From Alphaproteobacteria bacterium (GTDB lineage Bacteria > Pseudomonadota > Alphaproteobacteria > Bin95), in NCBI GenBank assembly GCA_964291285.2, contig OZ219787.1:1856001-1920000 (forward strand): 64,000 nucleotides of DNA, in the 5' to 3' direction. Of this stretch, positions 24,631 to 45,181 are shown piece after piece (positions within the stretch are counted from its first letter, which is position 1; every line of letters begins with the position of its first letter). The notes below the pieces were generated by a model. It searched no databases and was not told the DNA's origin. It was given only the letters and a program-made list of their open reading frames with translations. Position numbers and translations under genes: made by a program.

Positions 24631-24649
24631 GGCGTAAACCGAGAATGGC

Positions 24650-25923: not shown

Positions 25924-25997
25924 GGAGATGGCTGGAAGGACCGGGTGGACATGAGTCCCTTGGGTGCCGGCGATGGTGGCGGAGCGGAGGAAGTGAG

Positions 25998-27419
25998 ATG
26001 AAGGCGTCCAACAAATTCCTGTTCGACATGAGGTCGGTCGAGGCGATCGAGCCCGGGGAAAAGGAGAGGATCGCCTGGGACGAGGAGGTGGAAGGATTCG
26101 GGCTTCGCGTTCTGCCTTCAGGGACCCGGTCGTGGATCGCGAGCCGCAGGGTGAGGGGCGAGGACGGGAAGGTCCGGCGTCGGCGGGTGACGATCGGCCG
26201 GTTTGAGGATGTGGGGCTCGAGGAGGCGAGGAAGGAGGCGAGGAGAGTGTTGTCCGGTTCAGAGGAGGCGGCTGGTGCGGTGCAGGAGGAAGACGTTGGG
26301 GCGCCGGCGGAAGGAGCGACTGCGGGAATGCCGCAGGACATGAAGGATGCGGGGGAAGGCGCGGTGTGGGTGAATCCCGATGACGACGTGGAGCCGCGGG
26401 AGGCGGAGCATTTCCATCCGGAGACGGGCGAGATCCTGTCAGGATTTGGAGGGGAGGACGACGGCGGTTGGGTAGACGAAGGGCTCGATCTCGATGACTT
26501 GAGCCGGTCGGCGGCCGCAGGGGAGAGAGTTGCGGCTCGTGAAGAGGAGGCAGGACCGGACAGGGTAGCCATGGCGGACGTGCTGGGTGGGGTTCTGCAA
26601 GGGGTTGATGGCGACGGCCGTGAAAGGAGGGAGGGCGGTACCGGGCGAGGCGAAGGACCGGAACTCGGTGCGGACGAGAGCGAGCATGAAGGGATCGTAT
26701 CGGAAGCTGCCGATGTCACGGATGGGGATTCTTCGAAGTCGCCGGTAGGGGACGACGGGTCTGTCCGGTCCGGGCCAGGCGTTGGTGCGGAGATGGTTCG
26801 GAAGGTGGGAGGAGCCGTGGCGACGGTTGCGGGTCAGGCAGCGAGGTTGGGAAGAAAGGCGAGGACGGACCGTGGAAACGGCAGCGAGCCGGAGGATGAG
26901 GCGGCAAGCCGGCCTGCCGAAGTGGCGGACGTGCATGACGCCGGCATCGAGGAGGTGCCGCCGCCGGCGCGTCTTGTGAAGCGGCAGCGGCGCGGCGAGG
27001 GAACGGAGGGGGGAAATCGGGAGGGGATGGAAGTCAGTGACGAGACGGCAGCGGGGGTGGCGCGGAATCTTGACGAAGCGGGGGGCCTGCTGGACCGGAT
27101 CGCGGAGACCGGCGAGAAGCTGATGCCGCTGTTGGAGGACGTGTCGAGCTCGCTGACCCTGTTTTCGAAGGATGTCCGGAACTGGCGTCGTCGCTGGGTA
27201 GGGCCTGTGGTCGTGTTGGTGGTCCTGGCGCCGGTGCTGGTTGGGGCGGGACTGTTGATCCAGAGCCGGTTCCCGCTGCTGCCCAGGGCGGACCCGACAG
27301 GCGGGTGGAAGGACCATGTCTGGGAGCAGTACGGGCCCGCCCTCGTGGAATGCTACCGGCGCGCGCAGGCGACCGAAGCGGGGCGCACGGACTGCGCGGT
27401 GGAGGTGCGGGCCAGGTAA
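25998..27419 (+). CDS. Integrase arm-type DNA-binding domain protein with acidic linker and C-terminal TM; no catalytic domain
   Basis: WDEEVEGFGLRVLPSGTRSW...TIGRF..VGLEEARKEAR; TM VGPVVVLVVLAPVLVGAGLLI; GGAGG RBS. Confidence 0.75.
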   Translation: MKASNKFLFDMRSVEAIEPGEKERIAWDEEVEGFGLRVLPSGTRSWIASRRVRGEDGKVRRRRVTIGRFEDVGLEEARKEARRVLSGSEEAAGAVQEEDVGAPAEGATAGMPQDMKDAGEGAVWVNPDDDVEPREAEHFHPETGEILSGFGGEDDGGWVDEGLDLDDLSRSAAAGERVAAREEEAGPDRVAMADVLGGVLQGVDGDGRERREGGTGRGEGPELGADESEHEGIVSEAADVTDGDSSKSPVGDDGSVRSGPGVGAEMVRKVGGAVATVAGQAARLGRKARTDRGNGSEPEDEAASRPAEVADVHDAGIEEVPPPARLVKRQRRGEGTEGGNREGMEVSDETAAGVARNLDEAGGLLDRIAETGEKLMPLLEDVSSSLTLFSKDVRNWRRRWVGPVVVLVVLAPVLVGAGLLIQSRFPLLPRADPTGGWKDHVWEQYGPALVECYRRAQATEAGRTDCAVEVRAR

Positions 27420-27438
27420 GGCCCGCGGAGGTTGGCGC

Positions 27439-28464
27439 ATGTACAGCGACGCCGAGATCGATGCGGCAGTCCGGGACGGCGCGCTCGCGCCGGAGGCCGC
27501 ACTTGCGTTCCGTGCGCATGTGGCCCGGGCGCGCGCGGGGCCGGTCGGCGGCGAGGAGCACGTCCGCCTCGTGACCGGCTTCAACGACATCTTCACGGGG
27601 ACCGCCGCGGCGCTGGCGCTGGCCGGCCTGGCCTGGCTCGCCGGCAGCCTGCATGCCGCCCTCGGCGGCGCGGCGGTGGCGCTCGCCTCATGGGCGCTGG
27701 CGGAGTATTTCACCCGCCGCCGGCGCATGGCGTTCCCCTCCCTGCTGCTGCTGGCGGGGTTCGCCGGCGGCGTCTTCCAGGCCGCGTTCGAGGCCGCCGG
27801 CGCGGCCGGGCTCGATGCCGCGGACCCGGCCGCCGCCCTGGCGGGCGCCTGCGCGGCGCTGGCGGCCGGCCTGCACTGGCGGCGCTTCCGGGTGCCGGCG
27901 ACGGTGGCGGCCGGCGCGGGCGCGCTGGTCGCGGTTGCACTGGCCCTGACCGCCGCGGCCGTCCCGGAGGCCCATGCGGAGGCGGCGGTGCTCGCGGCCA
28001 TGTTCCTCGCCGGCGCCGGGGTGTTCGCCCTTGCCATGCGCCGGGACCTCTCCGACCGCGAGCGCGCCACCCGCAGGGCCGATACCGCGTTCTGGCTCCA
28101 CCTGCTGGCCGCGCCGCTCATCGTCCACCCGGCGTTCTCGCTCCTCGGCGAGGGCGGCGGCGCGCCCGGGCCGACCGCCGCGGTCGCCCTGCTCTACGCG
28201 CTGCTGGCCGTCATCGCGCTGGCGGTGGACCGGCGCTCGCTGCTGTTCGCGGCGCTCGCCTACCTGCTGACCGCGATCTACGACCTCACCCGGGGGGTGG
28301 AGTCCGTCGGGTCCCGCCTCGCGCTCGCCATCCTGGTCGCGGGCGCCGCGCTGCTGCTGCTCTCCGCCTTCTGGCGCCGCGCCCGCAGCGCCGTGCTGCG
28401 CGCCCTGCCGGCCTCATGGCAGGCCGCGTTGCCCGCATCGGCCCCGCCAGCACCGGCGCCGTGA
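27439..28464 (+). CDS. Conserved hypothetical polytopic membrane protein
   Basis: MYSDAEIDAAV...EEHVRLVTGFNDIF, AFWLHLLAAP, VDRR motifs; many TM segments; GGAGG RBS. Confidence 0.8.
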   Translation: MYSDAEIDAAVRDGALAPEAALAFRAHVARARAGPVGGEEHVRLVTGFNDIFTGTAAALALAGLAWLAGSLHAALGGAAVALASWALAEYFTRRRRMAFPSLLLLAGFAGGVFQAAFEAAGAAGLDAADPAAALAGACAALAAGLHWRRFRVPATVAAGAGALVAVALALTAAAVPEAHAEAAVLAAMFLAGAGVFALAMRRDLSDRERATRRADTAFWLHLLAAPLIVHPAFSLLGEGGGAPGPTAAVALLYALLAVIALAVDRRSLLFAALAYLLTAIYDLTRGVESVGSRLALAILVAGAALLLLSAFWRRARSAVLRALPASWQAALPASAPPAPAP

Positions 28465-28537
28465 CACGCCCGGACGGCCAGGAACCCGGAGCGGAAGGAA
28501 AGCCCCCGGGGCGCGAACCGGCCCGGAAGGAGAGACG

Positions 28538-28723
28538 ATGACCGGAAAACCGACAATGACAGCGACAGACTCCCGGCGCGCCGCCTGCGCCTTCGAGACG
28601 CTGAACGACATCGCCAGGCACTCAGGCGACAAGGGCCTGCTGATCGACATGGAACGCTTCGCGCTTGAGCTGTGCGAGACGCTGAAAACCTCGCTGCGGC
28701 TCATGCCTGGCAACGACTGCTGA
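28538..28723 (+). CDS. Small hypothetical protein
   Basis: AAGGAG RBS; natural-looking composition. Confidence 0.45.
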   Translation: MTGKPTMTATDSRRAACAFETLNDIARHSGDKGLLIDMERFALELCETLKTSLRLMPGNDC

Positions 28724-28783
28724 AACCGGAAGGGACCGGGCGGCTGACGCCGACCGCGCCAGGAGGAACGCCTGAAATGTGGA

Positions 28784-29437
28784 TCAGGACCGACAGGCGT
28801 CAGCGGAAGGTTTGTACGCAGGATTACTCCAGGCCCTTCCGGACCGGTTTCGTTTGACGATGTCGGCGACGGTATTTTTGGAGATCTGGAGGTCTCTGGC
28901 TATCCACCGGTAGCTCCGCCCGTCTTCGACGGCCTTGAGGACGGCGGGGGCGAGGCGGTCGGACTTGGGTCTCTGGCCGGGCTGGCGCCCGAGCTTTTTT
29001 CCACGGGCTCTGGCGGCGGCGAGTCCGGACTTGACGCGTTCGGAGATCAGGTCGCGTTCGAACTGGGCGATTCCGGCCAGCAGCGTGGCCATCATGCGCC
29101 CGTGGGGCGTATCGAGTTCGAAGGTCATGCCGTTCATGGCGACGAGGGAGACGTTCCATCCGGCGAGGCGGTGCAGGGTTTCGAGGAGGTCCTGCGTCGA
29201 GCGGCCCCATCGGGAGAGTTCGGTGACGAGCACGGCGTCGATCGAGCGGGCCTGGGCGAGGGCGATCACGCGGTTTCGCTCGCGCCGTGCGTTTCGGGTT
29301 CCGGAGGCGGTCTCGAGGAAGGTTCCGGCGACGTCGAACCCGGCGCGTCCCGCGAACGCCTCCAGGTCGCGGACCTGCCGTTCGCAGGACTGGTCGGCGG
29401 TCGAGACCCGTGCGTAGATGGCGGCGTTGCGTCCCAT
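28784..29437 (-). CDS. Serine resolvase/invertase
   Basis: YARVST, LSRWGRS, ERVKSGLAAARARGKKLGR, C-terminal HTH. Confidence 0.93.
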   Translation of the reverse strand: MGRNAAIYARVSTADQSCERQVRDLEAFAGRAGFDVAGTFLETASGTRNARRERNRVIALAQARSIDAVLVTELSRWGRSTQDLLETLHRLAGWNVSLVAMNGMTFELDTPHGRMMATLLAGIAQFERDLISERVKSGLAAARARGKKLGRQPGQRPKSDRLAPAVLKAVEDGRSYRWIARDLQISKNTVADIVKRNRSGRAWSNPAYKPSADACRS

Positions 29438-29631
29438 TTGAACCTACCCGGCCGGAGCATGGATAAACCGTTGATTCCACGGGGGCGTGTATTGTGCAGA
29501 ATATACACCTGTTCAACAGGGACACGTCAGGATGCCGCGCCGCCTCTCTCGCCCTCGTCCCGTGAGAGCGTTCCCGGAATCCCGTCCGACACGGCCTCCC
29601 TGGAGCGCTGCTACAGCCTTCCGGACGACGA

Positions 29632-29970
29632 TCAGGACGGGCAAGAGTTCGGGTTCGGGCCGAAGTGGAACCCCCGGACGCGCGGGAAGGCGTCCGCGTA
29701 ATCCCAGGTCTCGTCTTCCGTGCCCAGACAGGCGACCAGGATGGACGAGCCGTCCTTCCAGGTGACGGTGAGGCTGTTCGGGTTCGAGGAGCCGGTGTAG
29801 TCGACGACGCGGCTGGCCGGGGCCAGGGCGATACGGTGTTCGTCCTCGTCGACCATCCAGCGCTTTTCGACGTCTTCCCAGAATGAGTCCTCGGCACCGT
29901 AGCGTGCGACGAAGCGGTCGGCGGCAGGGGCGTTTGCGGTAACGGCAGGTGGCGGGTCGCCGGCGCTCAT
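29632..29970 (-). CDS. Hypothetical protein (112 aa)
   Basis: ATGA overlap with the upstream large gene. Confidence 0.55.
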   Translation of the reverse strand: MSAGDPPPAVTANAPAADRFVARYGAEDSFWEDVEKRWMVDEDEHRIALAPASRVVDYTGSSNPNSLTVTWKDGSSILVACLGTEDETWDYADAFPRVRGFHFGPNPNSCPS

Positions 29971-32900
29971 GCCGAGAGTCCCCTGCCCTGGTCCCGCACG
30001 GCCTGGCGCCGTGTGATCGCGGCGGCCTGGCGGGTCCAGACTTCCTCGTTGATGTGGGCGATGCCGTCAGCGAAGCCCGGAGGAAGGCCCTGGGCGATGC
30101 GTCGCGTTGATATGGGTTCGCGGGTCTGGGCGGCGTGGTCGAGGAAAGCGCGGACCATGGAGAGCGATTGCTTTGGCCATGCGCGGCTCTGGCGGGCGAA
30201 CTCGTAGACCGCCTCCGGATTGCGTTCGTCTTCCGGCAGGAAAGTCTGGCGGATGAGGCCGGCGAACTCGCCGGGGTCGAAGCGCTGGTCCTGGACGATG
30301 TCGTCGGAGCCGGGGCGCAGCGCGACCTGGTGGGGCTCCCGGTTGGCAGAGCGGGCCGCCTGGCGGATCGCGCGGAGTTCCTCGGCGATATCGACCAGGT
30401 CGACCCTCTTGCGGTCGATGTGGTCGCGGTGGGCGGGATCCTCGTTGGCGAACCAGTTGTCGAAGGTCTGGACGATCTTCTCGGCGCGGACGTCCCAGCG
30501 GCGGTATTCGGGGCTGATGTTCTTGAGGGGCGTTCCGGGTTCCGTTGGTCCATGGCGCTCGAGGATGGCCTGGTAGTGGGCGAGATGTTCGCGGCCCCGG
30601 GAGACCGCGCCGACGATTTCGTCGCGGACACGGGTCTCGCTTTCCAGGACAGCCTTGAGGCTCGTGAGGAAGCTGCGGTCGCCGGGGGTGAGATGCGGGC
30701 TTGTGAGGACGCGGTTGATGTCGGGTTTGAGTGCTTCGATGCCGGGCTGGTAGATGAGGGCGGTTTCGCCGGCGGCGATGTCGGCGTCTTCCCAGGCCTC
30801 CCGGATACGGGCGCACTCCCGGTCCACGATCTCCGGAGGGTCGATGAGGATGTCGTGCGAAAGCGGTCCGTCCATGTCGGGCTCCATGTTCCGGATTTCG
30901 ATCGGATGAGGAGCGTTGCGGGCGGCTTCGACGAGTTCGGACGCGGCGCGGTCCTTGCCGGCGCCGAAAGTCCAGAGAGTGGCGGGAGGGATGCCGATCA
31001 GGAGCGTGTCGCGGTCCTGGAGGTGGTGTGCGGCGTAGGTGGTCGGGCGGTGCGTAACGCAGGCGACCCCGTGCATGGCGGCCCATTCGGCAGCGTGCAG
31101 CCCGGCTCCTTCGTGGTTTATGCAGTGGATGACGAGGGGGGTGTCGGGCGTGCGGGCGCGCTCGGCGTTGAGCAGCTCGGCGACGCGGTGACCGTGCTCA
31201 CGTCCGAGGGAACGGCCTCCGACGATGGCCAGATGGCGGCCGTCAGGGGCGAGGGTTTCGGTCTTGTGGAGATCGCGTGCGCGCTTCTGGCGCTCCATGA
31301 GCCAGTCGCCGGCGCTCTGCGTGGTGGCGGGCGCCCGGGCATGCGGGCGAAGACCGGTCCATTTGGAAACGGCCTTCTCCGCGTATCCCGACAGTTCCCG
31401 AAGGTAGGAGGCGGTCTCCCGGAGACGGGGCAGGCGATTGGCGCCCTTGCCGGTCCGGGATATGTGCTGCAGGGACTTGTCCACCTCGCGCTGAAGGGTG
31501 CGGAAGATGGCCGCGAACCGCGAGAGCAGCATGTCGCGGTCGGAGGGGACGAGGTCGGAGGGTTCGACGGCGCTGGGATGGTCGTCGGGACAGAGCGTGG
31601 CGATATTCGTGTAGATGGTGTCGATCAGCTGGCGATGCGCAGCGCGAAGCTCGGAGTGGCGTTGCCGGATTTCTTCGGGGGTGTTGGCGCCGTCGAGGTG
31701 CCGGGTGCGCCTCCGGTCCCGCTGGTCGAAACGCCGGGACATATCGACCGTCCCGGCCTTTGCGAAGATGTCGGCGGTCGATGCGGCAAGGCTGAGATGT
31801 TCGCTGCGGGCGACGAGGTCCTGGTAGGCCTGGTCTCGCTCGTGAAGTTCGGCTGGCGAGAGCATGTACTCGAAGGCCTCGCCGCTCTGTTCCCGGTCTG
31901 GTTCGCTTCGGGCGAGCGCAAGGTGCTCCCGCTCGGACCCGGGAGTGTTTTCGAGGTTCAGGCCCGCGCGCTCGCGGCGTTCGGTTGCGAGGCGCTCGTC
32001 GACGGATCGGTGCTGGGCGTTGAAGGCTTTTGCGGCTTCGCGCAGAAGGCGGTTGGGTTCGGTTGCAAGGGGGCCTTCTTCGGTCAGGCGCCAGAGGGAG
32101 TGCATTGCCGTGAGTGCGCGCTCCCTGGTGATGGAATCGGGCGGACGGTGGGCGAGGGCTTCGGCTTCGCGCTCCTGGCGACGTTCCTCGCCGACTTTGT
32201 GGATGAGGGCCTGCGTGGTGTGAATATAGGTCTCCTTCAGCGCAGCGAGCCGGACAGGAATGTCGGTATCGACCGGGTGGTGAGGAGCGCGGGCGTTCTG
32301 TGCCCGGTCGAGGGAGACCATTTGTTCAGTGATGCGGGTGAGGGCCGTCTCGAGCTGATCGGAAGTGAGCTGGTACAGTCGGCCGAACCGGGCGCGGCGC
32401 TCGCTGTCCTCGTGCTGCCGGGCGAGTTCGGCCCGGGACGGGGTCAGCTGGCCGGTTCGCATCGCGCGCACCTCGGCGACGGCATGCCGGTTTCGCAGGG
32501 CGTGGCGCTGCTCGCGGTCTGCGTGGCGGGCGGCGCGTTCGGTCGCCGATACGGTGCGCTCGGGAGCAGGAGACTGGTGCAGGCGCTGGAGCCGGGTCCA
32601 TGCCTGTTGCCTGGAGAGCGTGGCGAGGTTGAAGACGGGGATCTTCCATTCCCGGGCTATCAGAAGGCCGAGGCCGGTGCCGCCCTGGATTTTTCCGTCC
32701 AAGGTCCAGCAGACGACGGCGTCGACGGGATTGTCGAGATTGGGGCCAAGAAGTATCGCGACGTTGCGGGCATGGGCCTTGCGGGCGAAGTCTTCGCATC
32801 TGTGCCAGGCGGGGTGAAGCCGCCCGGCGATCCTGATGCATTCCTGCAGGCGGTCGGGCGGCAGAGTGTGGCAGTCGGGGCCCCGGAGGCCCTCGAAGCC

Positions 32901-34676
32901 GGGCCGGGGCAGCCATATGGTCCGTTGATCGGCCGGAGTACCGGCGGCGAAAGCCGTATCGGCGCCCCTGGCGCCTCCAGAATGGAGGTGGAAGCCGGCG
33001 GCCGCCATCTGTCGGGAGAGTTCCGTCATGTCCTGAAGGACAGCATCGGGCGTTTCGCGGGAGCCGATGCCGGCCCAGCGCAGGGGGCTCGTCTGTGAAA
33101 GTGGCGGAGCGGCAGCCAGCGCCTGATCCTGCGCAGGATGGGCGGCGTGGGCGCGGGCAGGTGCGGTGCGCACGGGAATTCCGTTGTTGTCGGCAAGCGC
33201 CAGCAAGCGGTTGTGGGCGTTGCCGCGACCGCCGAAATCGACGATCAGGTCGGGCTTCAAGGCAATCCAGGCGTCGTCTCGGGCGTGGATATTGTAACGC
33301 TTGTGCTCGGGGTCCCACCGGGGCGGATTGGGTATGAGGGGGACCCGGCGACCGGTTGCCCAGCGGCGGACCGCGGGATCGACGCCCTCGATGCGCGATT
33401 TGCCGCCCTTGCCTTGCAGGCGGGCGCCGTAGTGCAGCACCATTTCCGGAATTCGCTCGCGGAGACGATTGAGGGCGGGGACGACTGTCTCGCGGGCGAT
33501 CCGGGGAGCGAGGTCCCCATCGCCCACGACGAGGATATGCGGTCCATCAAGGGGCGTAGGGGCGGGGTGTCCGAGTTCTGCGGCGCGCCGGGCGGAGGCG
33601 TAGTCGGCTCCTGTGAGGGTCGTTCTCGTGCGCGGGCCGCCAGCGGCGCTCATGGCGGGATCGTCGCGCTGCCATTCGCGTTCGGTGGTTTCGAGGTAGA
33701 GCGCGGCGGCGGCGTCGGTTGCCTGGGCGAGACACTCGGTTCTGACCAGGGAGGCCCGGGTGGCGTCGTCGAAGTCCTGGACGGCCCGATCGTCGGGGGA
33801 TTGGCCGAAGGCCGGGTGATGGCGCATGCGGCGGAAGACGTCGTCGGATGAGAGTTCGGCGTTCGCGTCGAGCATGCGCACGATGCGCCAGGCGCCTGCG
33901 GTGCGCTCGTCCTGGAGCTGGGTGCCGTCCGGGTAGATCCGCGTGAGGGCGTGGAACATCTGGCCGGCCGCGTCGAGCGAGCGGCCGGCGTCTGTAGCGG
34001 GAATCTCTTCGGTCGGGGAATCCGGGGCGGACGCGGAGGCGCGCAGCGCGCTGCGCTTGTCGCGGGCCCCGTCCGCGGCTTCCTGGACGCGGGTCAGGGT
34101 TTCGGGCGCGGGCTTCCAGCGATCCTCGCGGGTTGCGAAGAAGGTGGCTGCGTCGATCTGGGCGCCGTAGGAGGCGTCGGTGAACTGTGCGTCGAGAGAA
34201 CCCTGCCGCGCGAGCCAGGGGCGACCGACCGTCTGCCCGTAGAGGTTGAGGCCGTGTTCGAGAGCTTCGCGCAGGACGCCGATCTGGTTCCGGATGTTCT
34301 CGGCCTGATGGGCCGGGAGGAACTCGGCGTCGTGGGCGTCCATGTCGTCGTCGGATGATGGCGTCCGGTTGTCTTCGTCCTCAGGAGGCTCGAGGCGATG
34401 GTCGAGACGGGCCTCGAGGCGTGCAACATGGCTGCGGAGCTGGTCGACCGCGCCCCATAGAAGGCGGTCTCGATCGAGGGCCAGCGGCGAGGCATCCGAG
34501 CAGAGGGTGGAGCCGATGGCGGTAAAGAGGAGATCGACGCCTGCCCGGGCCGATTCGACGTCGCCAGGGTCGCGGCCGTCATATTCGCGTGAGGAAGGGG
34601 AAGCGCCGGGGCCCATGTGGTCCATGACCTGGGAAGTGCCGGTGGCGGGACTCGCGAGGCCTTCGATCTCGGACAT
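29967..34676 (-). CDS. Polyvalent protein with three SLOG-fold domains (two DUF2493-like, one DprA-like) and a relaxase-like C-terminal region
   Basis: DGPHILVVG...GIPV; WAGIGSRETP...SGGARGADTAF...GGTG; DGRHLAIVGG; C-terminus aligns with 34973-35970. Confidence 0.75.
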   Translation of the reverse strand: MSEIEGLASPATGTSQVMDHMGPGASPSSREYDGRDPGDVESARAGVDLLFTAIGSTLCSDASPLALDRDRLLWGAVDQLRSHVARLEARLDHRLEPPEDEDNRTPSSDDDMDAHDAEFLPAHQAENIRNQIGVLREALEHGLNLYGQTVGRPWLARQGSLDAQFTDASYGAQIDAATFFATREDRWKPAPETLTRVQEAADGARDKRSALRASASAPDSPTEEIPATDAGRSLDAAGQMFHALTRIYPDGTQLQDERTAGAWRIVRMLDANAELSSDDVFRRMRHHPAFGQSPDDRAVQDFDDATRASLVRTECLAQATDAAAALYLETTEREWQRDDPAMSAAGGPRTRTTLTGADYASARRAAELGHPAPTPLDGPHILVVGDGDLAPRIARETVVPALNRLRERIPEMVLHYGARLQGKGGKSRIEGVDPAVRRWATGRRVPLIPNPPRWDPEHKRYNIHARDDAWIALKPDLIVDFGGRGNAHNRLLALADNNGIPVRTAPARAHAAHPAQDQALAAAPPLSQTSPLRWAGIGSRETPDAVLQDMTELSRQMAAAGFHLHSGGARGADTAFAAGTPADQRTIWLPRPGFEGLRGPDCHTLPPDRLQECIRIAGRLHPAWHRCEDFARKAHARNVAILLGPNLDNPVDAVVCWTLDGKIQGGTGLGLLIAREWKIPVFNLATLSRQQAWTRLQRLHQSPAPERTVSATERAARHADREQRHALRNRHAVAEVRAMRTGQLTPSRAELARQHEDSERRARFGRLYQLTSDQLETALTRITEQMVSLDRAQNARAPHHPVDTDIPVRLAALKETYIHTTQALIHKVGEERRQEREAEALAHRPPDSITRERALTAMHSLWRLTEEGPLATEPNRLLREAAKAFNAQHRSVDERLATERRERAGLNLENTPGSEREHLALARSEPDREQSGEAFEYMLSPAELHERDQAYQDLVARSEHLSLAASTADIFAKAGTVDMSRRFDQRDRRRTRHLDGANTPEEIRQRHSELRAAHRQLIDTIYTNIATLCPDDHPSAVEPSDLVPSDRDMLLSRFAAIFRTLQREVDKSLQHISRTGKGANRLPRLRETASYLRELSGYAEKAVSKWTGLRPHARAPATTQSAGDWLMERQKRARDLHKTETLAPDGRHLAIVGGRSLGREHGHRVAELLNAERARTPDTPLVIHCINHEGAGLHAAEWAAMHGVACVTHRPTTYAAHHLQDRDTLLIGIPPATLWTFGAGKDRAASELVEAARNAPHPIEIRNMEPDMDGPLSHDILIDPPEIVDRECARIREAWEDADIAAGETALIYQPGIEALKPDINRVLTSPHLTPGDRSFLTSLKAVLESETRVRDEIVGAVSRGREHLAHYQAILERHGPTEPGTPLKNISPEYRRWDVRAEKIVQTFDNWFANEDPAHRDHIDRKRVDLVDIAEELRAIRQAARSANREPHQVALRPGSDDIVQDQRFDPGEFAGLIRQTFLPEDERNPEAVYEFARQSRAWPKQSLSMVRAFLDHAAQTREPISTRRIAQGLPPGFADGIAHINEEVWTRQAAAITRRQAVRDQGRGLSA

Positions 34677-34972
34677 GTTCGGGGTGCCCTTTTTCACTCG
34701 TTTACCCGGTCGCCGAACGTTGTCCGACAGGTGGATTTTGACACAGGAGGGGTTCAACGGCCATGCGCAGAAAGGCGGCAGTGGAGGCCGAAGTCGAAGG
34801 GGAAAGGCAGTTGCGGTGGTTTGGAGAAAACCACGGACATGTCGAGGAGAACGGAAGGGATTGTTCGTGGCGGTCAGGAAAAAGGTGGAAGGGAAGGCAG
34901 GAACAGGTGTGAAGAAGTGGTGCGAAGAAGTGGTGCGGGTTGCGCCCGTTTCCGGGGTTGGCGCAGAGGTGG

Positions 34973-37900
34973 TCAGTATGAGATGCCGCGATCCTGGATG
35001 AGGGTCTGCTGGCGGATGAGGACCTCGGCTTCGCGCCGGTAGACCTCCCGGGACAGGCCGGAGAGAGCTGACGCCAGTCCTGGCGGGAGGCCTGCGGCCA
35101 GGCGGGCGGTAGAGACTTCATGGGGGAACTCGGCGGCCCGGTCGAGGAAGCGCCGGAATGAGGTGAGGGTTTCCTTCGGATACGCGCGGTTCCAGCGGGC
35201 GAGTTCGGCAACCGCTTCGGGATCGCGTTCATCCCGGGGCTTGAGGGCGCTTTTGAGGATCGGGAGAAGGCGATCCGGATCGAAGCGCTGATCCTGGATG
35301 GCGGACGCGCCGGCGTCGGGGACTTCGATCCGGTGGGGGGCGCGGAGCGAGTCGAGACCGGCAGAGCGGATGGCTGCGAGCTCGCTTCGCAGGTCGACGA
35401 TGTCGAGGCGGCGCCGGTCGACGTGTGCCCGGTGGTTCTCGGTTTCGGCGGCGAGGGAGGCGTCGAGGGTGGCAATGAGGCGCTGGGCACGCCTGTCCCA
35501 GGATCGGTAATCGGGGTCTGAACGGTAGAGGGATTGCGGCTGGGTCTCGCGTTCGCGGCGCCGACGGTCGATTTCGACCTTGAGCGGGTCCATGGCATCG
35601 ATGCGGCGTTGCGCGGCTTCGCGCGCGCGTCGGGCCGCGCCCCGGATGCCGCCGGGCCTCGGTTGCGGGGCGGAGGGTTGTTCGGCGCTGCGGGCGGAGT
35701 GGCGTTCGAGGATTGCAGCGTAGTCCTGCAGGTGCGTGCGGGCGCGCTCGATGTTGAGGTGGATGCTGTCGCGCACCCGGGTTTCGCTCTCGACGATCCG
35801 GCTGAGCATCGAGAAGTACTCGCAGTCGGAGGAAGACAGGAGTTCGGTGTCGAGCAGGGGACCGATGCGGGGGAGCAGACTGGCGGTGCCGGGGTGGTAG
35901 ATGAGGGGTGTCTCGCCGGCTTCCTCGTCGAGGCGGTCGAAAGCTGTACGGAGACGCCGGCTCTCTGCGGCGACGGCCCCGGCGGCGGTGGGCGGCCATT
36001 CATGGTCCGTGTCGGTTACGCCGGCGGCGGTGCGGGCGGCGTGGTGGCGTTCGAGGATCGAGAGAACGCCGGCCTTTTGCTCCGGGGTGGCTTCGTCGCG
36101 GGCGGCGAGGAGTTCGAGGGCGGCCATATGGTCCGCGAGGCGCCGTGTCGGGAGGGTCGAGCCGGGCAGGAGTCGTTCGCGTTCTTCGAGGATTTGCTTC
36201 TCGGCCGGGATGGTCCGGATGACGGACACGGCGGCGGTTTCGACGGACGGTGCGGACCGAAGGCGGGCGCGCCAGGTTCGGGCATCGACAGAGTCGGGGC
36301 GCAAGGGGCCGGGCAATTTCCGGATGATGTCCGAGAAGGCGCGGACGCGGTCCCGGAGCTGGGTATATTCGCGCAGTCTGGCGACGGTCCAGGGCGCAGA
36401 GCCGGTATCGGGCTGAAGGTTGCGCCATTGCGCATCGAGGGCCGAGTGCAGGGCATCGATGTGGCTGCGAAGCTGGACCGTCGCCGCGCGCGCGGGCACC
36501 GTGTGGCTGCGAAGCTGGACCGTCGCCGCGCGCGCGGGCACCGTGTTCCGGATGAAGGCCGCCGTGCGGGCGACGAGGTCGCCGTGGTCGGGACGGTCGA
36601 GCGCCGCAAGGCGATGAGGAAGGGCGCCCCTGAACTGGCTCCAGGCTTGGGCGAGGGCGTGTGCTTCGGCCCTGTGCGCGGCGGCGCTGTCGGTGAGCCA
36701 CCGGCCGTCCGTGCGGGTGACGCCGGCGGCCTCGCGCGCCTTCTCCCAGCTCTCCAGCCGTTCCATGAACCCGGCGCGCTCGTCGTCTCTCAGGAACGCG
36801 GCGCTGTTTTCAAACGAAGCGACCGCGCGCAGGTTCTCCATGTGCTCGTGGAGGCGCCGGGTCGGCAGGGTCGAGCCCGGAAGCAGGGCCTCGCGGTCCC
36901 GGATCATGGCGTCCTCGGCCTCGATGGACCGGACGAGCATGCCGAACGCCTCCAGCGTATCCGGCGTGGCGCCGAGCCAGTCCCGCCATTTGCGTCCGGA
37001 GAATCCCGGGACGACGAACCCCTCGGGAAGCCCCCTGAGGTCGCCGGTCAGTGTGTAGGCGCGCCACCGGAGGCGGTCATATTGCCTGAACGCCGCCCAG
37101 CCGTATCCCGGTGCGGCGGTCGGCTGGCGGACGGCGGCCCGGGCCTCCTCCAGGGCCGTGTCCAGCTGCCGGAGATGGCCGGCGAGGAAGGCCGCCTGCT
37201 TCCTCGCGGTATCGGCGTCGAGCGAGGGGTCGGCGGCGTGCCGGGCGGTGCTGGCGATTACCTGCCAATGCCGGGGGTATTCGAGCGCGGCCAGCGGGTC
37301 GCCGCGCATCGCCGCGCGGATCGCGCGCCAGTCCTCGCGGAGCCGGGCTTCGGTCGCGATCCGGTTTTCGAGCTGTTCGTCGCTCGGCCAGGGCGCGTCG
37401 GTGCGCGTGACGCCGGCGTCCCTGCGCGCCTGGCGGTGCTGGCGGATGAACTGGCGGATTTTCTTGCGCGCTCCGTCGTCGAACCCGTCGAGGGCGAGAG
37501 CGCCGTTCATCGTGGCCATGTGGTCGGCCAGCCGCCGGGTCGGCAGCGTCGAGCCGGGAAGCCGTTCCTCCCGGCGCCGCATGAGCGCTTCCTCCGCGTC
37601 CCGCTGCTCGGTGAAGGCTGTCAGGATGTCCCGATAGGCCGGCGCGGCCTGGAGGCGCCGGCGCCAGAGTGCGGTTTCGGCCCTGCGGTCGCCCTGGAGT
37701 CCGGAAGCGGCATCGAGCACGGCCGGGAACGCATGGGCCTGGCGCATGAGGCGGCCATAGCCGGACACGCTCCCGGGCGAGAGGCGCTCGACGGTATTCT
37801 GCCGCAGCGGGGTTGCCTGTTTCCAGGCGCGCGTGAGCGCGGCCCCGAGCGCGGCGTGATGGCCGTCCAGGAACGCGCGCCAGCTGTGCGCGGTATCGCG

Positions 37901-40900
37901 GTCGATCTCCGGGTCGGTCGCGATCGCGACCGTCCGGCGCAGCAGTCCGGCATGCTCCGGGTCTTCAAGGAACCCGAGGATGTCGGGGCCGGTGCGGGAG
38001 CGCAGCGCGCTCCAGTCCCGTTCGAGGGGCCCGGCGAGGCTCCGGGTCCGGGCCTCCCTTGCGAGCCTGGCTTCGGCGTCGAGCGGGCCCGCCCAGCGGC
38101 GCTTCATCCGGCGCCGGAACAGCGCGAAGGCGCGGGCGCCTTCTCCGGAGACGCCGGGCCAGCGCTCGCCGGCGGTGTGTGCGCCGCTGCGCAGGAACAC
38201 GCGGACCCGGGCGAGGACGTCGCGGTGGCGGTCGAGCGTGCGGCGCACCCGCTCTGCGGCATCCGGCGCGGCGGCGGGCTCGGCCGGGGCGGGGATCGCG
38301 CTCCACTCGCGCTCGACCGCCTCCATGTCGGCGGCGAGTGCGAAGGCTTCGGCCCGGTTGGCGTTTTGGGAGAGTTGTCGGTTGGACGCGGCAATGATGC
38401 GCTGGACGGCGGCGCGGTCGGCGTGCCGGCGGACGGAGAGGCCGGGGCTTTCCCCGGGGCGGCGCGGCCCGCTGCCGGCGGTGCCGGGCTCCAATGCGTC
38501 GTTGGCAGGGATGGCGGGCTCGATCGGGTCGCGCCCGAGCTCCAGTTCGCCCTGTGCGAGGTATTCCTGCTCATTGGCGGCCAGGATGTAGTCGGTCGCG
38601 GCCTCCTTGGGCTGCGAGCGCCCGCAGAGCCGCCCCAGCGTCATCAGCACCTCGTCGTCGGAGACCTCGCGCCCGGGCTCGCCGTCGGGCGTGGCGCCGG
38701 CGATCGCGATCGCGACCGGAAGCCGGTCGGCGACGACCTGCAGGTGGTCGGTGTGCCGGGTGCAGGCCGGATAGGCGGTCTCCCGGGCCATGCCCTCGTC
38801 CAGCAGGACGAAGCCGGCGTCGATGGTGAGGCCCTGGGCGGCGGTGCAGGTTGCGGCATATGCGTAGTCGATGGTGATCTCGCCGAGCCAGTTCCGTATG
38901 TCTCCGGGCTCGAACCGGATCGTGCGCCTGTCCCCGGTGCGGGCCGTGATGAGGACCTGCGTCTTGCCGTCTTCGGTCTCGCGCTTTTCGAGGCCGGTGA
39001 CGGTGACGACGTCGCGGTTGTAGAGGCCGAGCCGCGAAACGGTGGAGCCGATCCGCAGGCGGTCGCCGACGCGGACCTCGAAATCGTCTTCCAGGGCCTT
39101 GCCGCGGTCGCGCAGGCGGTGGATGCGGATGACGGCGGTGTCCCTCGCGGGATCATGGCCGGGAGACCCGGTCGCGGCGTGGTGCCGGGCGCGGAGCAGG
39201 GCGTTGAGCGCGCGCACGTCGGCGCGGGTCCGGGCCATGACGACGGCGTCATGCTCCGGGTTCTCGGCCATGTATGCGGACCAGTGCGCGACCAGGCGAA
39301 GCAGGGCGTCCTCCTTGCCTTCCGCCAGCGCCAGGCGGCCGCGCTTGTGGAGCTCGGTGAAGGCCTGGTGCATGGCGCCCGTGCGAAGCAGGGCGGATAC
39401 GCCGAGCTGCCAGGGCCGTTCGATACGCAGGGGCTTTTCGCCGGCGGCCTTGCGTTCCCGGTTCATGGCCGTGTAGCGCTTGCGGGCGGCAGCGCGGTCC
39501 TCGCGGGTCATCGCCGCTGCCCTTTCCATGGCTTCCCCGGCCGGCAGGCCGTCGACCTCCCGAAGGAAGTCTTCCGGCGTCGCTTTCTGGCGGCGGATGC
39601 GGTCGATGCGCACGCCCTTCACGCGGTCCCTGACGATGCGCATGCCCGGACCGGCCTCGATCGGCTGCTGCTGCCGGGTGTCGCCGACGAGGACGAGCTT
39701 GCAGCCGGTCCGCTCGCTCAACCGGACGAGCTGCAGCGTCTGGCGCGTGGACAGCATGCCGGCCTCGTCCACGACCAGGACGTTGTCGGGACCGATATCG
39801 ACGGCTCCCTTGTTGACCTTGCGCAGGAAGGGGTGGACGGCGCTCGGCGGCGCGTCGATGTCGCTCGCAAGTTCGACCGCGACGGACCAGGCGACGGCGA
39901 GCGCGCGGACTGTGCGGCCTTCGGCGCGCCAGAGGTCGGCAAGGGGGCCGAGCACGTGGGACTTGCCGCTGCCGGCGGCGCCTTCGATGAGGGCGATACG
40001 ACCGGACTCCGCGGCGGCGTGGTCGATGGCCTTGCGCTGCTCGGCGCTGAAGCGCTTGCCCTTGCTGGCGAGTTCCTCGAGCAGCCGGGCGACCTTGCCA
40101 GGTTCGACGGCGTGGGTGCGGTCCGAAACCGAAAGGGCCGAGACGTGGCGCAGCGTGTGCTCGGCGCGGAGCGTGTCCCCGGTCGTGAAGATCCTCTTGT
40201 GCGCCATGCCGGCCTGCGCCTCGATGCCGGGCTCCGGATACTGGAGGGAGACCAGCTCGGCATTGCCGAGGGCGACCTCGCGCCAGCGCGCCATGGCCTC
40301 GCGGTCGACCGCGCCGGCGAGAGCGTTCTCGAGCTTCTCGATGATGTTCGGGACGTTGAAGATCGCCTCCATCTGCGCAAGCTTCCCGGGAATGGCGATG
40401 ATCTCGGCGTGGATCTCCTCGATGCGTTCGCGGGTGAGCTCCTCGATCCCGGCAGCGTGGATGCGGTCCCGGAGCTCCTCGACATCGACGACCTCCGCGG
40501 CCTCCTCCAGGAAGCGCTCAATGTCCTCCTCGGTGGTGGGGCCGCCTTCGGGCTTGTGCGAGCGGGTCGCGAGCGTCGCGGCCGCCATCTGCGCCGGGTT
40601 CGAGAGTGCTTCCTCGCCCAGATGTTCGGCGACGGCCGCGACGATCGCGGCGCGGCGCTTGCTCCAGACCTGTTCCAGCTCCGGGTCCATCTCGCGCACG
40701 CGGCTGTATTGGCCCTCCGGCCCGTGGCGCTCCATGGCGATGCCGAGGCGTTCCTGCATGATGTGGGCCAGGTGGCCCCGGAACGCCGCGCCGGCGGCCT
40801 TCTTCCAGGAGTAGAGCGGATAGCCGTGCAGGGCGCGGTATTTGCCGTCGCAATGCGTCTTCACGGCATTGAAGATCGTCGCGTGGACATGCAGCTGGGG

Positions 40901-41392
40901 ATCGCCCTCGCGCGAAGTGCGGTGCAGGAACGTCGCCGCCAGCATGTCGCCGGTCTCGATGCGGCGATCCACCCCGGCCTTTCCGACGCGTGTCGTGGCG
41001 CAGTGCTGGAACACGGTTTCGTCGAGAGCGCAGCGCGCGGCGTCGATGACGGCGCGCTCGATCTTCTCGCGATCCTCGGCCCTGGGCGTGATCGCCCATA
41101 ACGCGGAGATCGACTTGTCGGCGGAGAAGGTCATGTCGAAGCCCGGCGAGCGTTTCTCGGAGCCGGCGTTCTGCACGAGCGAGGTGCCGTCGAGGTCGGG
41201 CGAATGGCCGGCGCAGAGCGCGTAGAACTTCTTCTCCCAGACGATCCCGCCGTTCTTCAGGCCGAAAAGGCCGGCCGGGTTGTGCCACTCGCCCGGACGC
41301 TCCTTGCCGCCGCCCGTGTAGTATCCTTCATGGGCCGCCTGACTCTCGATGTAGTAGGTCGGCACGGCCATCTTCGCGAGCGTCGCTACCAC
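34973..41392 (-). CDS. MOBF (TrwC-type) relaxase-helicase with repetitive C-terminal extension (2139 aa)
   Basis: YY..GYY, FDMTFSADKSIS, HRTSREGDPQLHVH; Walker A GAAGSGKS, VDEAGM, VGDTRQ, QGLT. Confidence 0.93.
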   Translation of the reverse strand: MVATLAKMAVPTYYIESQAAHEGYYTGGGKERPGEWHNPAGLFGLKNGGIVWEKKFYALCAGHSPDLDGTSLVQNAGSEKRSPGFDMTFSADKSISALWAITPRAEDREKIERAVIDAARCALDETVFQHCATTRVGKAGVDRRIETGDMLAATFLHRTSREGDPQLHVHATIFNAVKTHCDGKYRALHGYPLYSWKKAAGAAFRGHLAHIMQERLGIAMERHGPEGQYSRVREMDPELEQVWSKRRAAIVAAVAEHLGEEALSNPAQMAAATLATRSHKPEGGPTTEEDIERFLEEAAEVVDVEELRDRIHAAGIEELTRERIEEIHAEIIAIPGKLAQMEAIFNVPNIIEKLENALAGAVDREAMARWREVALGNAELVSLQYPEPGIEAQAGMAHKRIFTTGDTLRAEHTLRHVSALSVSDRTHAVEPGKVARLLEELASKGKRFSAEQRKAIDHAAAESGRIALIEGAAGSGKSHVLGPLADLWRAEGRTVRALAVAWSVAVELASDIDAPPSAVHPFLRKVNKGAVDIGPDNVLVVDEAGMLSTRQTLQLVRLSERTGCKLVLVGDTRQQQPIEAGPGMRIVRDRVKGVRIDRIRRQKATPEDFLREVDGLPAGEAMERAAAMTREDRAAARKRYTAMNRERKAAGEKPLRIERPWQLGVSALLRTGAMHQAFTELHKRGRLALAEGKEDALLRLVAHWSAYMAENPEHDAVVMARTRADVRALNALLRARHHAATGSPGHDPARDTAVIRIHRLRDRGKALEDDFEVRVGDRLRIGSTVSRLGLYNRDVVTVTGLEKRETEDGKTQVLITARTGDRRTIRFEPGDIRNWLGEITIDYAYAATCTAAQGLTIDAGFVLLDEGMARETAYPACTRHTDHLQVVADRLPVAIAIAGATPDGEPGREVSDDEVLMTLGRLCGRSQPKEAATDYILAANEQEYLAQGELELGRDPIEPAIPANDALEPGTAGSGPRRPGESPGLSVRRHADRAAVQRIIAASNRQLSQNANRAEAFALAADMEAVEREWSAIPAPAEPAAAPDAAERVRRTLDRHRDVLARVRVFLRSGAHTAGERWPGVSGEGARAFALFRRRMKRRWAGPLDAEARLAREARTRSLAGPLERDWSALRSRTGPDILGFLEDPEHAGLLRRTVAIATDPEIDRDTAHSWRAFLDGHHAALGAALTRAWKQATPLRQNTVERLSPGSVSGYGRLMRQAHAFPAVLDAASGLQGDRRAETALWRRRLQAAPAYRDILTAFTEQRDAEEALMRRREERLPGSTLPTRRLADHMATMNGALALDGFDDGARKKIRQFIRQHRQARRDAGVTRTDAPWPSDEQLENRIATEARLREDWRAIRAAMRGDPLAALEYPRHWQVIASTARHAADPSLDADTARKQAAFLAGHLRQLDTALEEARAAVRQPTAAPGYGWAAFRQYDRLRWRAYTLTGDLRGLPEGFVVPGFSGRKWRDWLGATPDTLEAFGMLVRSIEAEDAMIRDREALLPGSTLPTRRLHEHMENLRAVASFENSAAFLRDDERAGFMERLESWEKAREAAGVTRTDGRWLTDSAAAHRAEAHALAQAWSQFRGALPHRLAALDRPDHGDLVARTAAFIRNTVPARAATVQLRSHTVPARAATVQLRSHIDALHSALDAQWRNLQPDTGSAPWTVARLREYTQLRDRVRAFSDIIRKLPGPLRPDSVDARTWRARLRSAPSVETAAVSVIRTIPAEKQILEERERLLPGSTLPTRRLADHMAALELLAARDEATPEQKAGVLSILERHHAARTAAGVTDTDHEWPPTAAGAVAAESRRLRTAFDRLDEEAGETPLIYHPGTASLLPRIGPLLDTELLSSSDCEYFSMLSRIVESETRVRDSIHLNIERARTHLQDYAAILERHSARSAEQPSAPQPRPGGIRGAARRAREAAQRRIDAMDPLKVEIDRRRRERETQPQSLYRSDPDYRSWDRRAQRLIATLDASLAAETENHRAHVDRRRLDIVDLRSELAAIRSAGLDSLRAPHRIEVPDAGASAIQDQRFDPDRLLPILKSALKPRDERDPEAVAELARWNRAYPKETLTSFRRFLDRAAEFPHEVSTARLAAGLPPGLASALSGLSREVYRREAEVLIRQQTLIQDRGISY
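36461..36544. repeat. Perfect in-frame 42-bp tandem duplication within the relaxase
   Basis: TVPARAATVQLRSH twice. Confidence 0.9.
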
Positions 41393-42642
41393 CGCGGCGG
41401 CTCCCTGGCCGGGTCCTGCGCCGACAGTCCGGAGAGGCGCCTGTGGTCCGGATTGGCGTCCAGGATGTCGCGCGTCGTGAACAGGCGCTTGTGCGCCATG
41501 CCGGCGACGGCGTCCGGGTTGGGGTCGTCGTATTCAAGCGGGAGCAGGTTGATGGTGGAGAGGGCGTATTCCAGCCACTGATCCATCGCAGTGTCGTCGA
41601 AGAGGCCGGCGGCGGCGTTCTCCACACGGGTGACGATATCGGCCGTGTTGAAGACCAGGTCCGCCGCGGCGAGAGTGCGGGGAATGTCCTCGAGCTCCCG
41701 GCGGAGCTTGTCGCGCTCCTGTTCGGTTACGTCATTGAAGGAGGATCGGACGATCCGCGCGTGCAGGGCGTCGGGATCGACGATCCCCGCTGCTTCGGCC
41801 CTGAACCGCGCGATATCGCTTTCCGTGGCCGTTCGCTTGAGGCGCAGGGCAGCGGTCGTGGACGCGCCGGCGCCGGAAGCGGCCGGATCGGGTGTCCTCC
41901 AGGCAGCGTGAACGGCGTTGACATGGGCTTGCAGCCTCGCATTACGCTTGCTCCAGAGTCCCTCGAGACCGCGGTCCATGCGGCGGACGCGGGTGTATTC
42001 GCCATGCGCGCCGTGACGCTCGATCTCCACCCCGAGGCGGCTGCGCAGCCGGCAGGCCAGGCGGTTGCGGAAGGCGGCGCCGATGGCCTTCTTCCAGGAA
42101 TACAGCGGATAGCCGTGAAGGGTACGGAAGCGGCCGTCTGAATGGGTTCTGACAAGATTGAAGACGACGCAGCTGACGTCCAGTTGGGGGTCGAGTTCGC
42201 GGGAAATGTGAAACGGGGCAATCGCGGCGAGGATGTCGCCGGTCTCGACGCGAAGCCCGCTTGCTGCTCTCCCGATGCGTGTGGTGGCGCAGTGGCGGAA
42301 GACGATCGCGGTGAGAGCGATCCTGGCGGCGTCCATGACCGCGCGCTCGATGCGCTTGCGGTCGAAGTCGGGAGAGGTGGCCCAGAGCGCGGAAATCGAC
42401 TTGTCGGGCGAGAGGACGATATCGAAGCCGGGCGTGTGTGTCCCGGATATGGCCCTGCGGGTAAGCGGGCCCGCGTTCTGCGGTGCAAATCCCCTCCATA
42501 AGGCGAGCAAGTCCTTGTCGGGAACCGTCGCCCCGTCCGGGAGATGCAGCAAACCGGCCGGATTGCGCCATGTGGCAGCGTAGGCTCGTTGGCGGTTGGT
42601 ATAGAGGGCCGGGTCGGCCAGCTTGTTGATTCTCGCTACCAC
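41386..42642 (-). CDS. Relaxase-domain-only paralog with degenerate active site
   Basis: GFDIVLSPDKSISALWA and LHGYPLYSWKKA conserved; HUH motif changed to FHISRELDPQLDVS. Confidence 0.82.
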   Translation of the reverse strand: MVARINKLADPALYTNRQRAYAATWRNPAGLLHLPDGATVPDKDLLALWRGFAPQNAGPLTRRAISGTHTPGFDIVLSPDKSISALWATSPDFDRKRIERAVMDAARIALTAIVFRHCATTRIGRAASGLRVETGDILAAIAPFHISRELDPQLDVSCVVFNLVRTHSDGRFRTLHGYPLYSWKKAIGAAFRNRLACRLRSRLGVEIERHGAHGEYTRVRRMDRGLEGLWSKRNARLQAHVNAVHAAWRTPDPAASGAGASTTAALRLKRTATESDIARFRAEAAGIVDPDALHARIVRSSFNDVTEQERDKLRRELEDIPRTLAAADLVFNTADIVTRVENAAAGLFDDTAMDQWLEYALSTINLLPLEYDDPNPDAVAGMAHKRLFTTRDILDANPDHRRLSGLSAQDPAREPPRW

Positions 42643-44924: not shown

Positions 44925-45181
44925 GTCCGATCCTCCTTCCGGGCCGGGGTTCCGGAGCCGCGCCTGGCGGGCGTCAGCCCCGATATCGCCCCGACCAACC
45001 CCTTCCCGGCCTTTCGTGCCTCGCGGCCGGCACGGCGCCGGGAGCATGGCCGCGAGCGCCCGCCTCCCTGTCCCGGCCCGGCTCCACGCCTCCGGCTGCC
45101 TCCGCCCCCGATCGGGCGCGCGCGGCGGAGGGCAGGTACAGAACGATCGCCCCGACGCCGGGGGGCATCGGGGCGATCGGA

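Follow-up and report, generated by a model that had tools for sequence, protein, structure and literature searches.

Why should the relaxase of a mobile element and the very large protein encoded next to it end in the same domain? The question is raised by a 64,000-nt stretch of alphaproteobacterial DNA (contig OZ219787.1 of assembly GCA_964291285.2, positions 1,856,001 to 1,920,000; G+C ~68%), which is called the window throughout and whose copy of the module corresponds to contig C3 of genome G000. Two long open reading frames (ORFs) run head to tail on its minus strand, encoding a MOBF (TrwC/TraI-type) relaxase-helicase at 34973-41392 and a polyvalent SLOG protein at 29967-34757, and their C-terminal domains (CTDs) are homologous. 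An earlier sequence-only reading of the window had taken the SLOG protein for a candidate effector delivered by conjugation. The CTD was found at the extreme C-terminus of only two kinds of protein, which recur as a pair and are associated with a TraG/VirD4-type type IV coupling protein (T4CP) and type IVB conjugation genes. The common CTD suggests, from sequence comparison, that both proteins are loaded on the same conjugation machine and that the SLOG protein is shipped to recipients.

The two genes comprise the following features, with residue numbers for the encoded proteins:

29967-34757, minus strand: gene of the polyvalent SLOG protein (P0001), longest ORF 1596 aa from TTG at 34757
33576-34676, minus strand: N-terminal ~370 aa of the SLOG protein, with no Pfam family at E <= 1 (residues 28-394)
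33312-33494, minus strand: first YAcAr (PF10686) SLOG domain, residues ~422-482, 30.6 bits against a cut-off of 28.2
32553-33125, minus strand: DprA-like domain, a probable third SLOG-type domain, residues 545-735, motif GSRETP...SGGARGAD, sub-threshold for PF02481
31266-32552, minus strand: middle region of the SLOG protein, residues 736-1164, with no Pfam family at E <= 1
31044-31232, minus strand: second YAcAr (PF10686) SLOG domain, residues 1176-1238, 31.0 bits against a cut-off of 28.2
29970-30860, minus strand: shared CTD of the SLOG protein (P0003), residues 1300-1596, ending in ...RGLSA
34973-41392, minus strand: MOBF (TrwC/TraI-type) relaxase-helicase (P0002, 2139 aa), assigned by Pfam
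36026-38056, minus strand: relaxase residues ~1113-1789, three ~230-aa repeats in tandem that match each other pairwise at E 1e-16 to 1e-25
34976-36004, minus strand: shared CTD of the relaxase (P0004), residues 1797-2139, ending in ...DRGISY, with a ~48-aa charged linker between its sub-domains

The homology of the two C-termini was confirmed by BLASTP, in which residues 1311-1595 of P0001 aligned with residues 1807-2138 of P0002 (window 34979-35974) at 38% identity (125 of 333 columns), 53% positives, and an expectation value (E) of 1e-56, with one insertion of ~48 residues in the relaxase. This alignment contained every block that had been picked out by eye (AGETALIYQPG/AGETPLIYHPG, ESETRVRD, AILERH, YRRWD/YRSWD, QDQRFDP, DERNPEAV/DERDPEAV, GLPPG, and the tails GRGLSA/DRGISY). 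BLASTP gave no other similar segments between P0001 and P0002, the next-best high-scoring segment pair having an E of 0.23. Across the sampled CTDs, identities were at least 49% among SLOG proteins, at least 38% among relaxases, and 34-47% between the two, such that SLOG-type and relaxase-type CTDs form separate groups, and a real and ancient homology is supported by these comparisons. Concerted evolution of the two CTDs within an element was considered and not seen, as SLOG-relaxase identity within the same element (37-46%) was that of the comparison overall (34-47%).

The structure of the CTD was predicted with AlphaFold2 from an alignment of eight sequences. The model of the last 297 aa was all-helical with 12 helices, a mean pLDDT (predicted local distance difference test) of 85.2, and a pTM (predicted template modelling score) of 0.80, and it was divided into two predicted sub-domains (residues ~9-103 and ~112-292). 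In relaxases, these are joined by a linker of ~35-60 aa that is variable and either Pro-rich or charged, and that is absent in SLOG proteins. The domain had been called possibly new, and this description held in all searches: no Pfam family was common to eight CTDs at E <= 10, the best match of a CTD profile to all PDB sequences was to Cas12f (E 0.55, no match), and Foldseek returned no PDB match at E <= 1e-3. Among the Foldseek matches listed, nearly all were 14-3-3 entries or complexes, with template modelling (TM) scores of 0.15-0.25. BID domains have entries in Pfam and the PDB, and no BID similarity was detected in the Pfam search of the eight CTDs (E <= 10) or with the PDB sequence profile. 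The HRDHxDRR block was considered as a sign of an HD-type phosphohydrolase and rejected, as its histidines are not conserved and no such fold was matched by Foldseek.

Ten columns were invariant in 24 CTDs (E161, A164, Q192, P209, A222, R223, R226, A227, P229, and L259), all in the second sub-domain, and ~28 further columns were at least 90% conserved. The extreme C-terminus is also conserved, reading ...RGxGxSA in SLOG proteins and ...GxG/DxS[YMH] in relaxases (17 ORFs from nine sister loci). The ratio of nonsynonymous to synonymous substitution rates (dN/dS) of the CTD was 0.20-0.64 in eight close pairs (0.20-0.35 for SLOG CTDs), and thus the CTD is under purifying selection. It nevertheless evolves faster than the catalytic parts, with a median identity of 44% against 68% for the catalytic half in relaxases (28 pairs) and of 54% against 63-64% for the SLOG domains in SLOG proteins (36 pairs).

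A HMMER scan of 1.84e9 representative proteins retrieved 19 with the CTD at E <= 1e-3, and it was C-terminal in all 19, as it was in 17 of 17 ORFs extracted from the nine sister loci. The Pfam scan of the non-window matches covered seven of 17, the other ten being proteins of <= 278 aa; it gave two YAcAr proteins (one also with NADAR), three TrwC/helicase proteins, and two without a family, which by eye were relaxase C-terminal fragments. When 90%-identity clusters were searched within lengths of 877-2793 aa, 34 CTD proteins were found at E <= 1e-5, namely 17 with PF10686, seven of which also carry NADAR (PF08719), and 17 with PF08751 (TrwC), and nothing else. The CTD is therefore not a tag spread over many types of cargo. 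The CTD relaxases were of ~2100-2250 aa with repeats, of ~1570-1670 aa, or of the type of P0016.

The CTD appears from these and the following searches to occur in one genus only. In a scan of the family, it was present in 10 of 37 genomes, all of the genus of the window (9 of the 16 other genomes of the genus, two of the nine having only fragments of <= 97 aa), and in none of 20 genomes of two other genera. No CTD was found in 400 other genomes of the class, with five candidates scored per genome, and tblastn with the relaxase CTD gave no match in the 72,556 plasmids of PLSDB. Two matches in metagenome-assembled genomes of Treponemataceae were spurious (40-44% identity over ~40-50 residues). 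We found no paper describing the CTD, although no search capable of establishing its absence from print was made, and the literature on DUF2493 yielded nothing on conjugation at the level of titles and abstracts.

The two carriers are recurrently paired. We counted 12 long CTD relaxases (at least ~2100 aa or truncated by the contig end), each of which was followed within ~13 kb by a second large CTD-bearing ORF of 1590-2255 aa, with a TAG codon interrupting one of these. No such partner was present on the contig of four or five CTD relaxases that are shorter or broken; the only one of them checked with Pfam, in genome G014, is a 1571-aa TrwC protein.

Genome G000 holds the module twice more, on contigs C2 and C5, and these two copies are ~99.4% identical. 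In both, the SLOG gene is followed by a membrane protein gene and then by the gene of a TraG/VirD4-type T4CP (PF02534, 150.6 bits; TraG-D_C), and the same copies carry DotA/TraY (TIGR04346, 226.7 bits against a cut-off of 100), DotI/IcmL (PF11393, 83.4 bits), T2SSE ATPases, a single-stranded DNA-binding protein (SSB), a nuclease, and pilus-type genes. By these profile matches, the transfer genes of C2 and C5 are a type IVB conjugation system, similar to mating-pair formation type I (MPF-I), and PF03135 (VirB4) had no match in genome G000. T4CPs at least 76% identical to that of C2 were found ~4-15 kb from six CTD pairs (genomes G000, G001, G009, and G010).

In the window itself, no secretion system was present and only a remnant of the T4CP gene was retained, which was 76% identical to residues 582-676 of the C2 T4CP. 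As the T4CP gene is truncated, the window element is decayed and could act or be transferred only in trans, with the intact copies on C2 and C5. The delivered-effector reading thus gained from the recurrence of the pair beside a T4CP and a type IVB system and from NADAR inserts that fit counter-defence, and lost with respect to the window copy, which has no T4CP or secretion system of its own. The features concerned are as follows:

28798-38288, strand not applicable: divergent cassette of the relaxase C-terminal half, the SLOG gene, and the resolvase gene, without a nucleotide match to C2 (blastn)
28784-29443, minus strand: resolvase-type serine recombinase gene, directly after the SLOG gene, inside the divergent cassette
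24316-24630, plus strand: remnant of the T4CP gene 3' end including the C-terminal tail (last ~100 codons), the rest of the gene being lost

The comparison of the window with C2 revealed a cassette of 30-55% identity within a backbone of 98-100% identity. The flanking backbone was 98.2% identical over window 38289-58373 and 98.4% identical over window 27277-28797 (blastn), and relaxase residues 1-1000 were 99-100% identical, while residues 1100-2186, with the repeats and the CTD, were only 30-53% identical, the SLOG proteins were ~50% identical, and the CTDs were 42-52% identical. Across the genus, the CTDs fall into groups A, B, and that of the window, with the same grouping for relaxase and SLOG CTDs, and the last 34-42 residues of the T4CP occur in types matching these groups. 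In 15 pairs of six elements, which are non-independent and effectively represent two or three lineages, T4CP tail identity was correlated with CTD identity at a Spearman coefficient of 0.84 for relaxase CTDs and 0.83 for SLOG CTDs, as against 0.09 and 0.45, respectively, for T4CP core identity. Between two of the elements, E3 and E7, the T4CP core was 94% identical, while identity was 29% for the tail, 39% for the relaxase CTD, and 56% for the SLOG CTD. To judge from their sequences, the tail of the T4CP, the C-terminal half of the relaxase, and the SLOG gene appear to behave as an exchangeable cassette.

These observations can be accounted for by a CTD that is a docking or translocation module common to the relaxase and the SLOG protein, functionally similar to BID and unrelated to it in sequence. 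We lean towards this explanation tentatively, and it may well prove wrong. The CTD would dock both proteins on the same component of the conjugation machine, most likely the variable C-terminal tail of the T4CP that would feed the type IVB (DotA/TraY, DotI/IcmL) system, and the polyvalent protein would be exported to the recipient together with the relaxase-bound T-strand. There, its YAcAr and DprA-like modules, and NADAR in its relatives, would bind single-stranded DNA (ssDNA) or nucleotide- or ADP-ribose-derived molecules, and the cargo would blunt the defences of the recipient ahead of plasmid gene expression. T4CP binding, export, and activity in the recipient are inferred, in contrast to the homology, the strictly C-terminal position, the limitation to two carriers, the gene pairing, the association with a T4CP and type IVB genes, and the cassette-like co-variation, which were observed. 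In a more specific form, the CTD would be a structurally new type IVB substrate-recognition domain read by a swappable T4CP tail of ~35-42 aa, and this tail, the relaxase C-terminal half, and an escort anti-defence protein would make up an exchangeable specificity cassette; this form is possible and distinctly doubtful.

The sequence-only reading had pointed to BID domains as a precedent, which is indeed in print: according to the accessible text of PMC5675462, the BID domain is common to TraA, the pVbh relaxase, and to VbhT, which is encoded directly downstream of that relaxase and is transferred to recipients. As in that pair, the C-terminal domain of a relaxase here also ends a second protein encoded just downstream, and it is already known in principle that a co-transferred protein can carry a C-terminal module derived from a relaxase. 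The CTD differs from BID in its length (~290 aa), its two sub-domains, and the lack of a Pfam (E <= 10), PDB-sequence, or Foldseek match. As far as the same text goes, the machine here is type IVB instead of VirB/Vbh type IVA, the putatively transferred cargo is a SLOG/NADAR polyvalent protein of 1570-2250 aa in contrast to the FIC toxin VbhT, and the two CTDs are only 34-47% identical, whereas the BID copies of TraA and VbhT are nearly identical. The present case differs in its domain with no detectable relative in sequence or fold, its type IVB system, its giant SLOG/NADAR cargo, and its apparently exchangeable cassette.

The cargo resembles the polyvalent proteins of conjugative elements, very large multidomain proteins encoded next to relaxase and transfer genes, for which entry into the recipient along with the DNA, and a function against recipient defences, were proposed (Iyer et al. 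2017, PMC5512222, in its accessible part). In that part of the source, neither YAcAr nor DUF2493 is mentioned, DprA appears once in another context, and a relaxase-derived C-terminal delivery handle is not described. The T4CP side also has parallels, as C-terminal domains of T4CPs bind relaxosome or adaptor proteins, and short, variable, acidic tails determine substrate or relaxosome specificity in the pairs F TraD-TraM and Legionella DotL-IcmSW, as far as the available text of PMC7434980 describes them. The T4CP tail here (34-42 aa) likewise occurs in types that track the CTD type, and by likeness to TraD-TraM and DotL-IcmSW, it would be the most specific candidate for the CTD partner. In contrast to those pairs, the putative partner is a domain on the substrates themselves and not a separate adaptor, and it is co-variation alone that points to the interaction.

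Several observations weigh against a docking module. One type of non-relaxase cargo only, the YAcAr/DprA-like polyvalent protein, was found, and the portability of the CTD as a tag is therefore unproven. In the complete genome of G014, a CTD relaxase occurs without a CTD partner, and no T4CP was matched at E <= 1e-30. The last 30 residues of the CTD had a net charge of -3 to +4 in 24 CTDs and are thus not basic throughout, and hence a BID-like positively charged C-terminal tail was not observed. The T4CP core remains 76-98% identical while the CTDs fall to 38-56%, and docking would therefore need to rest on the T4CP tail or on the few invariant CTD residues. Apart from the small number of lineages behind the tail correlation, the divergent tract of E3 and E7 is continuous from the tail of the T4CP across the SLOG gene and as far as mid-relaxase, and physical linkage alone could therefore yield the co-variation of tail and CTD; in contrast, 1.5 kb of 98.4% identical DNA separates the diverged SLOG gene from the diverged T4CP 3' end when the window is compared with C2. 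In the best-studied MOBF relaxases, moreover, the translocation signals are internal and not C-terminal (PMC3912908, in its accessible part).

This position of the signals, in a family whose member the CTD ends, speaks for a donor-side function, in which the CTD would assemble the relaxosome by binding an accessory DNA transfer and replication (Dtr) protein or the DNA of the origin of transfer (oriT), and the SLOG protein would use it to enter the relaxosome and to process the T-strand inside the donor, and would not be exported. Possible partners are encoded on the elements, namely a putatively dead relaxase paralogue, a NikA-like protein, an SSB, and two primase-like proteins, and G014 keeps its CTD relaxase with an SSB and two conserved proteins of unassigned function and has no T4CP. 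The C-terminal region of F TraI is said to work with TraM. A donor-side function of the CTD appears unlikely to us, as it is the T4CP tail and not an accessory gene that varies in step with the CTD type, the accessory-gene backbone is 98% identical between C2 and C3 while the CTDs are only 42-52% identical, and it is not obvious what a NADAR/SLOG cargo would do in the donor.

An effector-type domain with which both proteins work inside the recipient or on the T-strand (possibly by binding ssDNA, SSB, RecA, or a replication factor), with export by other signals, would explain the invariant or near-invariant charged and aromatic residues of the second sub-domain (W122, W136, D149-R150-R151, E161, Q192, R223, R226, and W228) and the faster evolution of the CTD compared with the catalytic domains, a pattern usual for parts that face a changing partner. 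We consider this improbable: it leaves the co-variation with the T4CP tail unexplained, the CTD forms the extreme C-terminus in every case, ending in a conserved ...G-x-S-x tail, and no nucleic-acid-binding or other known fold was detected with Pfam, PDB sequences, or Foldseek. The common end might finally have arisen incidentally, when neighbouring genes recombined (terminal reassortment), and have no function of its own in the SLOG protein, and the locus, with adjacent genes in a hot spot of cassette replacement, a resolvase gene, and many insertion sequence (IS) elements, would offer the opportunity. A functionless end is scarcely credible for a fusion that is old and kept in 17 SLOG-type proteins, whose CTDs group apart from those of relaxases and have a dN/dS of 0.20-0.35, with ten invariant columns across 24 CTDs.

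To our knowledge, there is little information on which proteins accompany conjugative DNA, or on their selection, beyond the relaxase and a few primases and toxins. If the docking explanation is true, the CTD would be a natural case of a selection handle that can be read directly from sequence, a relaxase-derived handle on a giant SLOG/NADAR protein with the T4CP tail as the candidate matching receptor. Substrate choice in MPF-I conjugation, protein-level delivery of anti-defence functions, and the exchange of specificity as a cassette would become directly testable. It would also be a second, independent invention of the BID principle, delivering a counter-defence protein directed at ssDNA or ADP-ribose with the T-strand. 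The narrow distribution in one genus limits this significance.

The domain content of the SLOG protein was determined with Pfam on separate pieces of the protein. Its gene probably starts at the ATG at 34676, which gives a protein of 1569 aa identical to database protein P0005. The label of a triple SLOG protein held for two of the three domains, the YAcAr domains, which exceed the curated cut-off and place the protein in the SLOG superfamily by profile. The third is a probable DprA-type SLOG domain, matching PF02481 (DprA) at residues ~560-606 with 19.7 bits, below the cut-off of 29.6, and it matched NCBIfam TIGR00732 (dprA) weakly (E 3.4e-4, 19.9 bits against a cut-off of 191), as it did DprA chains of the PDB (E 0.42-0.45). 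The middle region was the least conserved part, with a median identity of 49% (36 pairs). Two YAcAr domains, a DprA-like domain, and the CTD are thus combined in one polypeptide encoded beside a relaxase gene, as in polyvalent proteins, and relatives add NADAR. In many homologues (L046, L050, L052, and P0007), this insert (PF08719, 71-83 bits) follows the first YAcAr domain and precedes the DprA-like domain, and it is absent from the window protein; P0006 has a ~400-aa insert of unassigned nature at the same place.

SLOG proteins are described as binders of nucleotides, ligands, or nucleic acids in the accessible text of PMC6459960, and combinations of SLOG, NADAR, and Macro domains were proposed to counter ADP-ribose-derived signals or DNA ADP-ribosylation in that of PMC9503650. 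By analogy, a counter-defence role would suit the SLOG/NADAR cargo. On 27 other plasmids, 12 of which were typed as conjugative, the DprA-like module has homologues with 32-44% identity. The two inspected, a plasmid of Erythrobacter aureus (L066) and pNL1 of Novosphingobium aromaticivorans (L067), encode it as a stand-alone gene (~170 aa) or as a Macro fusion (~415 aa), without a relaxase-type CTD. Their neighbours include genes of ImmA/IrrE, SocA, RNase H, SSB, a nuclease, an SOS-response-associated peptidase, and a DNA methyltransferase.

The neighbouring protein was correctly read as a MOBF relaxase. PF08751 (TrwC) matched residues 12-282 with 200.9 bits against a cut-off of 25, and a superfamily 1 (SF1) helicase was recognized by AAA_30 at residues 448-622 (134.3 bits) and by AAA_19 and Viral_helicase1. 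Its sequence contains DPQLHVHATIFN with HVH, which we take to be the histidine triad, and YY near the N-terminus, presumably the active-site tyrosines. The protein consists of three parts, a catalytic and helicase half (~1-1050), the three repeats (~1113-1789), and the CTD. A hidden Markov model (HMM) of the repeat matched three times in each long relaxase of the genus and not at all in SLOG proteins. In the third repeat (36451-36546), a 42-nt unit is duplicated (2.3 copies, 96% matches), giving the repeating peptide TVPARAATVQLRSH. The CTD was also considered as a fourth copy of the ~230-aa repeat and rejected, the hhalign probability being 0.4% and the repeat HMM matching weakly on the first ~37 residues only.

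Further genes of the element lie upstream of the relaxase gene:

41386-42642, minus strand: relaxase-domain paralogue, 418 aa, directly upstream of the relaxase
43896-45668 and 49774-51054, minus strand: two DUF7146-Toprim (primase-like) genes
47655-48470, minus strand: SSB gene

The paralogue was 45% identical to residues 1-363 of P0002 (E 7e-97), with DVS in place of HVH and without the N-terminal YY region, and it is conserved in all three modules of genome G000. It may be a catalytically dead relaxase that serves as an accessory DNA-binding protein, judging from these motifs. The window gene content also includes many transposases, the resolvase, a large serine recombinase, and a NikA-like protein. 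In G014, the SSB and two proteins of unassigned function (window counterparts 46188-47477 and 48471-49091) accompany the short CTD relaxase. At the position of the resolvase gene, the C2 copy has only ~460 bp; the resolvase may have a part in cassette exchange or be left over from a transposon. The stretch at 24627-27419, abutting the T4CP remnant, gave an Arm-DNA-binding (integrase N-terminal) match and odd low-complexity Pfam matches.

Genome G000 carries an unusually heavy MOBF load, with 21 TrwC-domain matches in 6.1 Mb on five contigs. Its contigs C2 and C5 share more than 60 kb at ~99.4% identity, and C1 and C4 share identical relaxases. At a second type IVB locus (G000:C2:256611-258809, minus strand), a T4CP is 88-89% identical up to residue 587 and then apparently out of frame, and its gene is probably frameshifted or disrupted; it adjoins the gene of a 1548-aa TrwC relaxase without the CTD.

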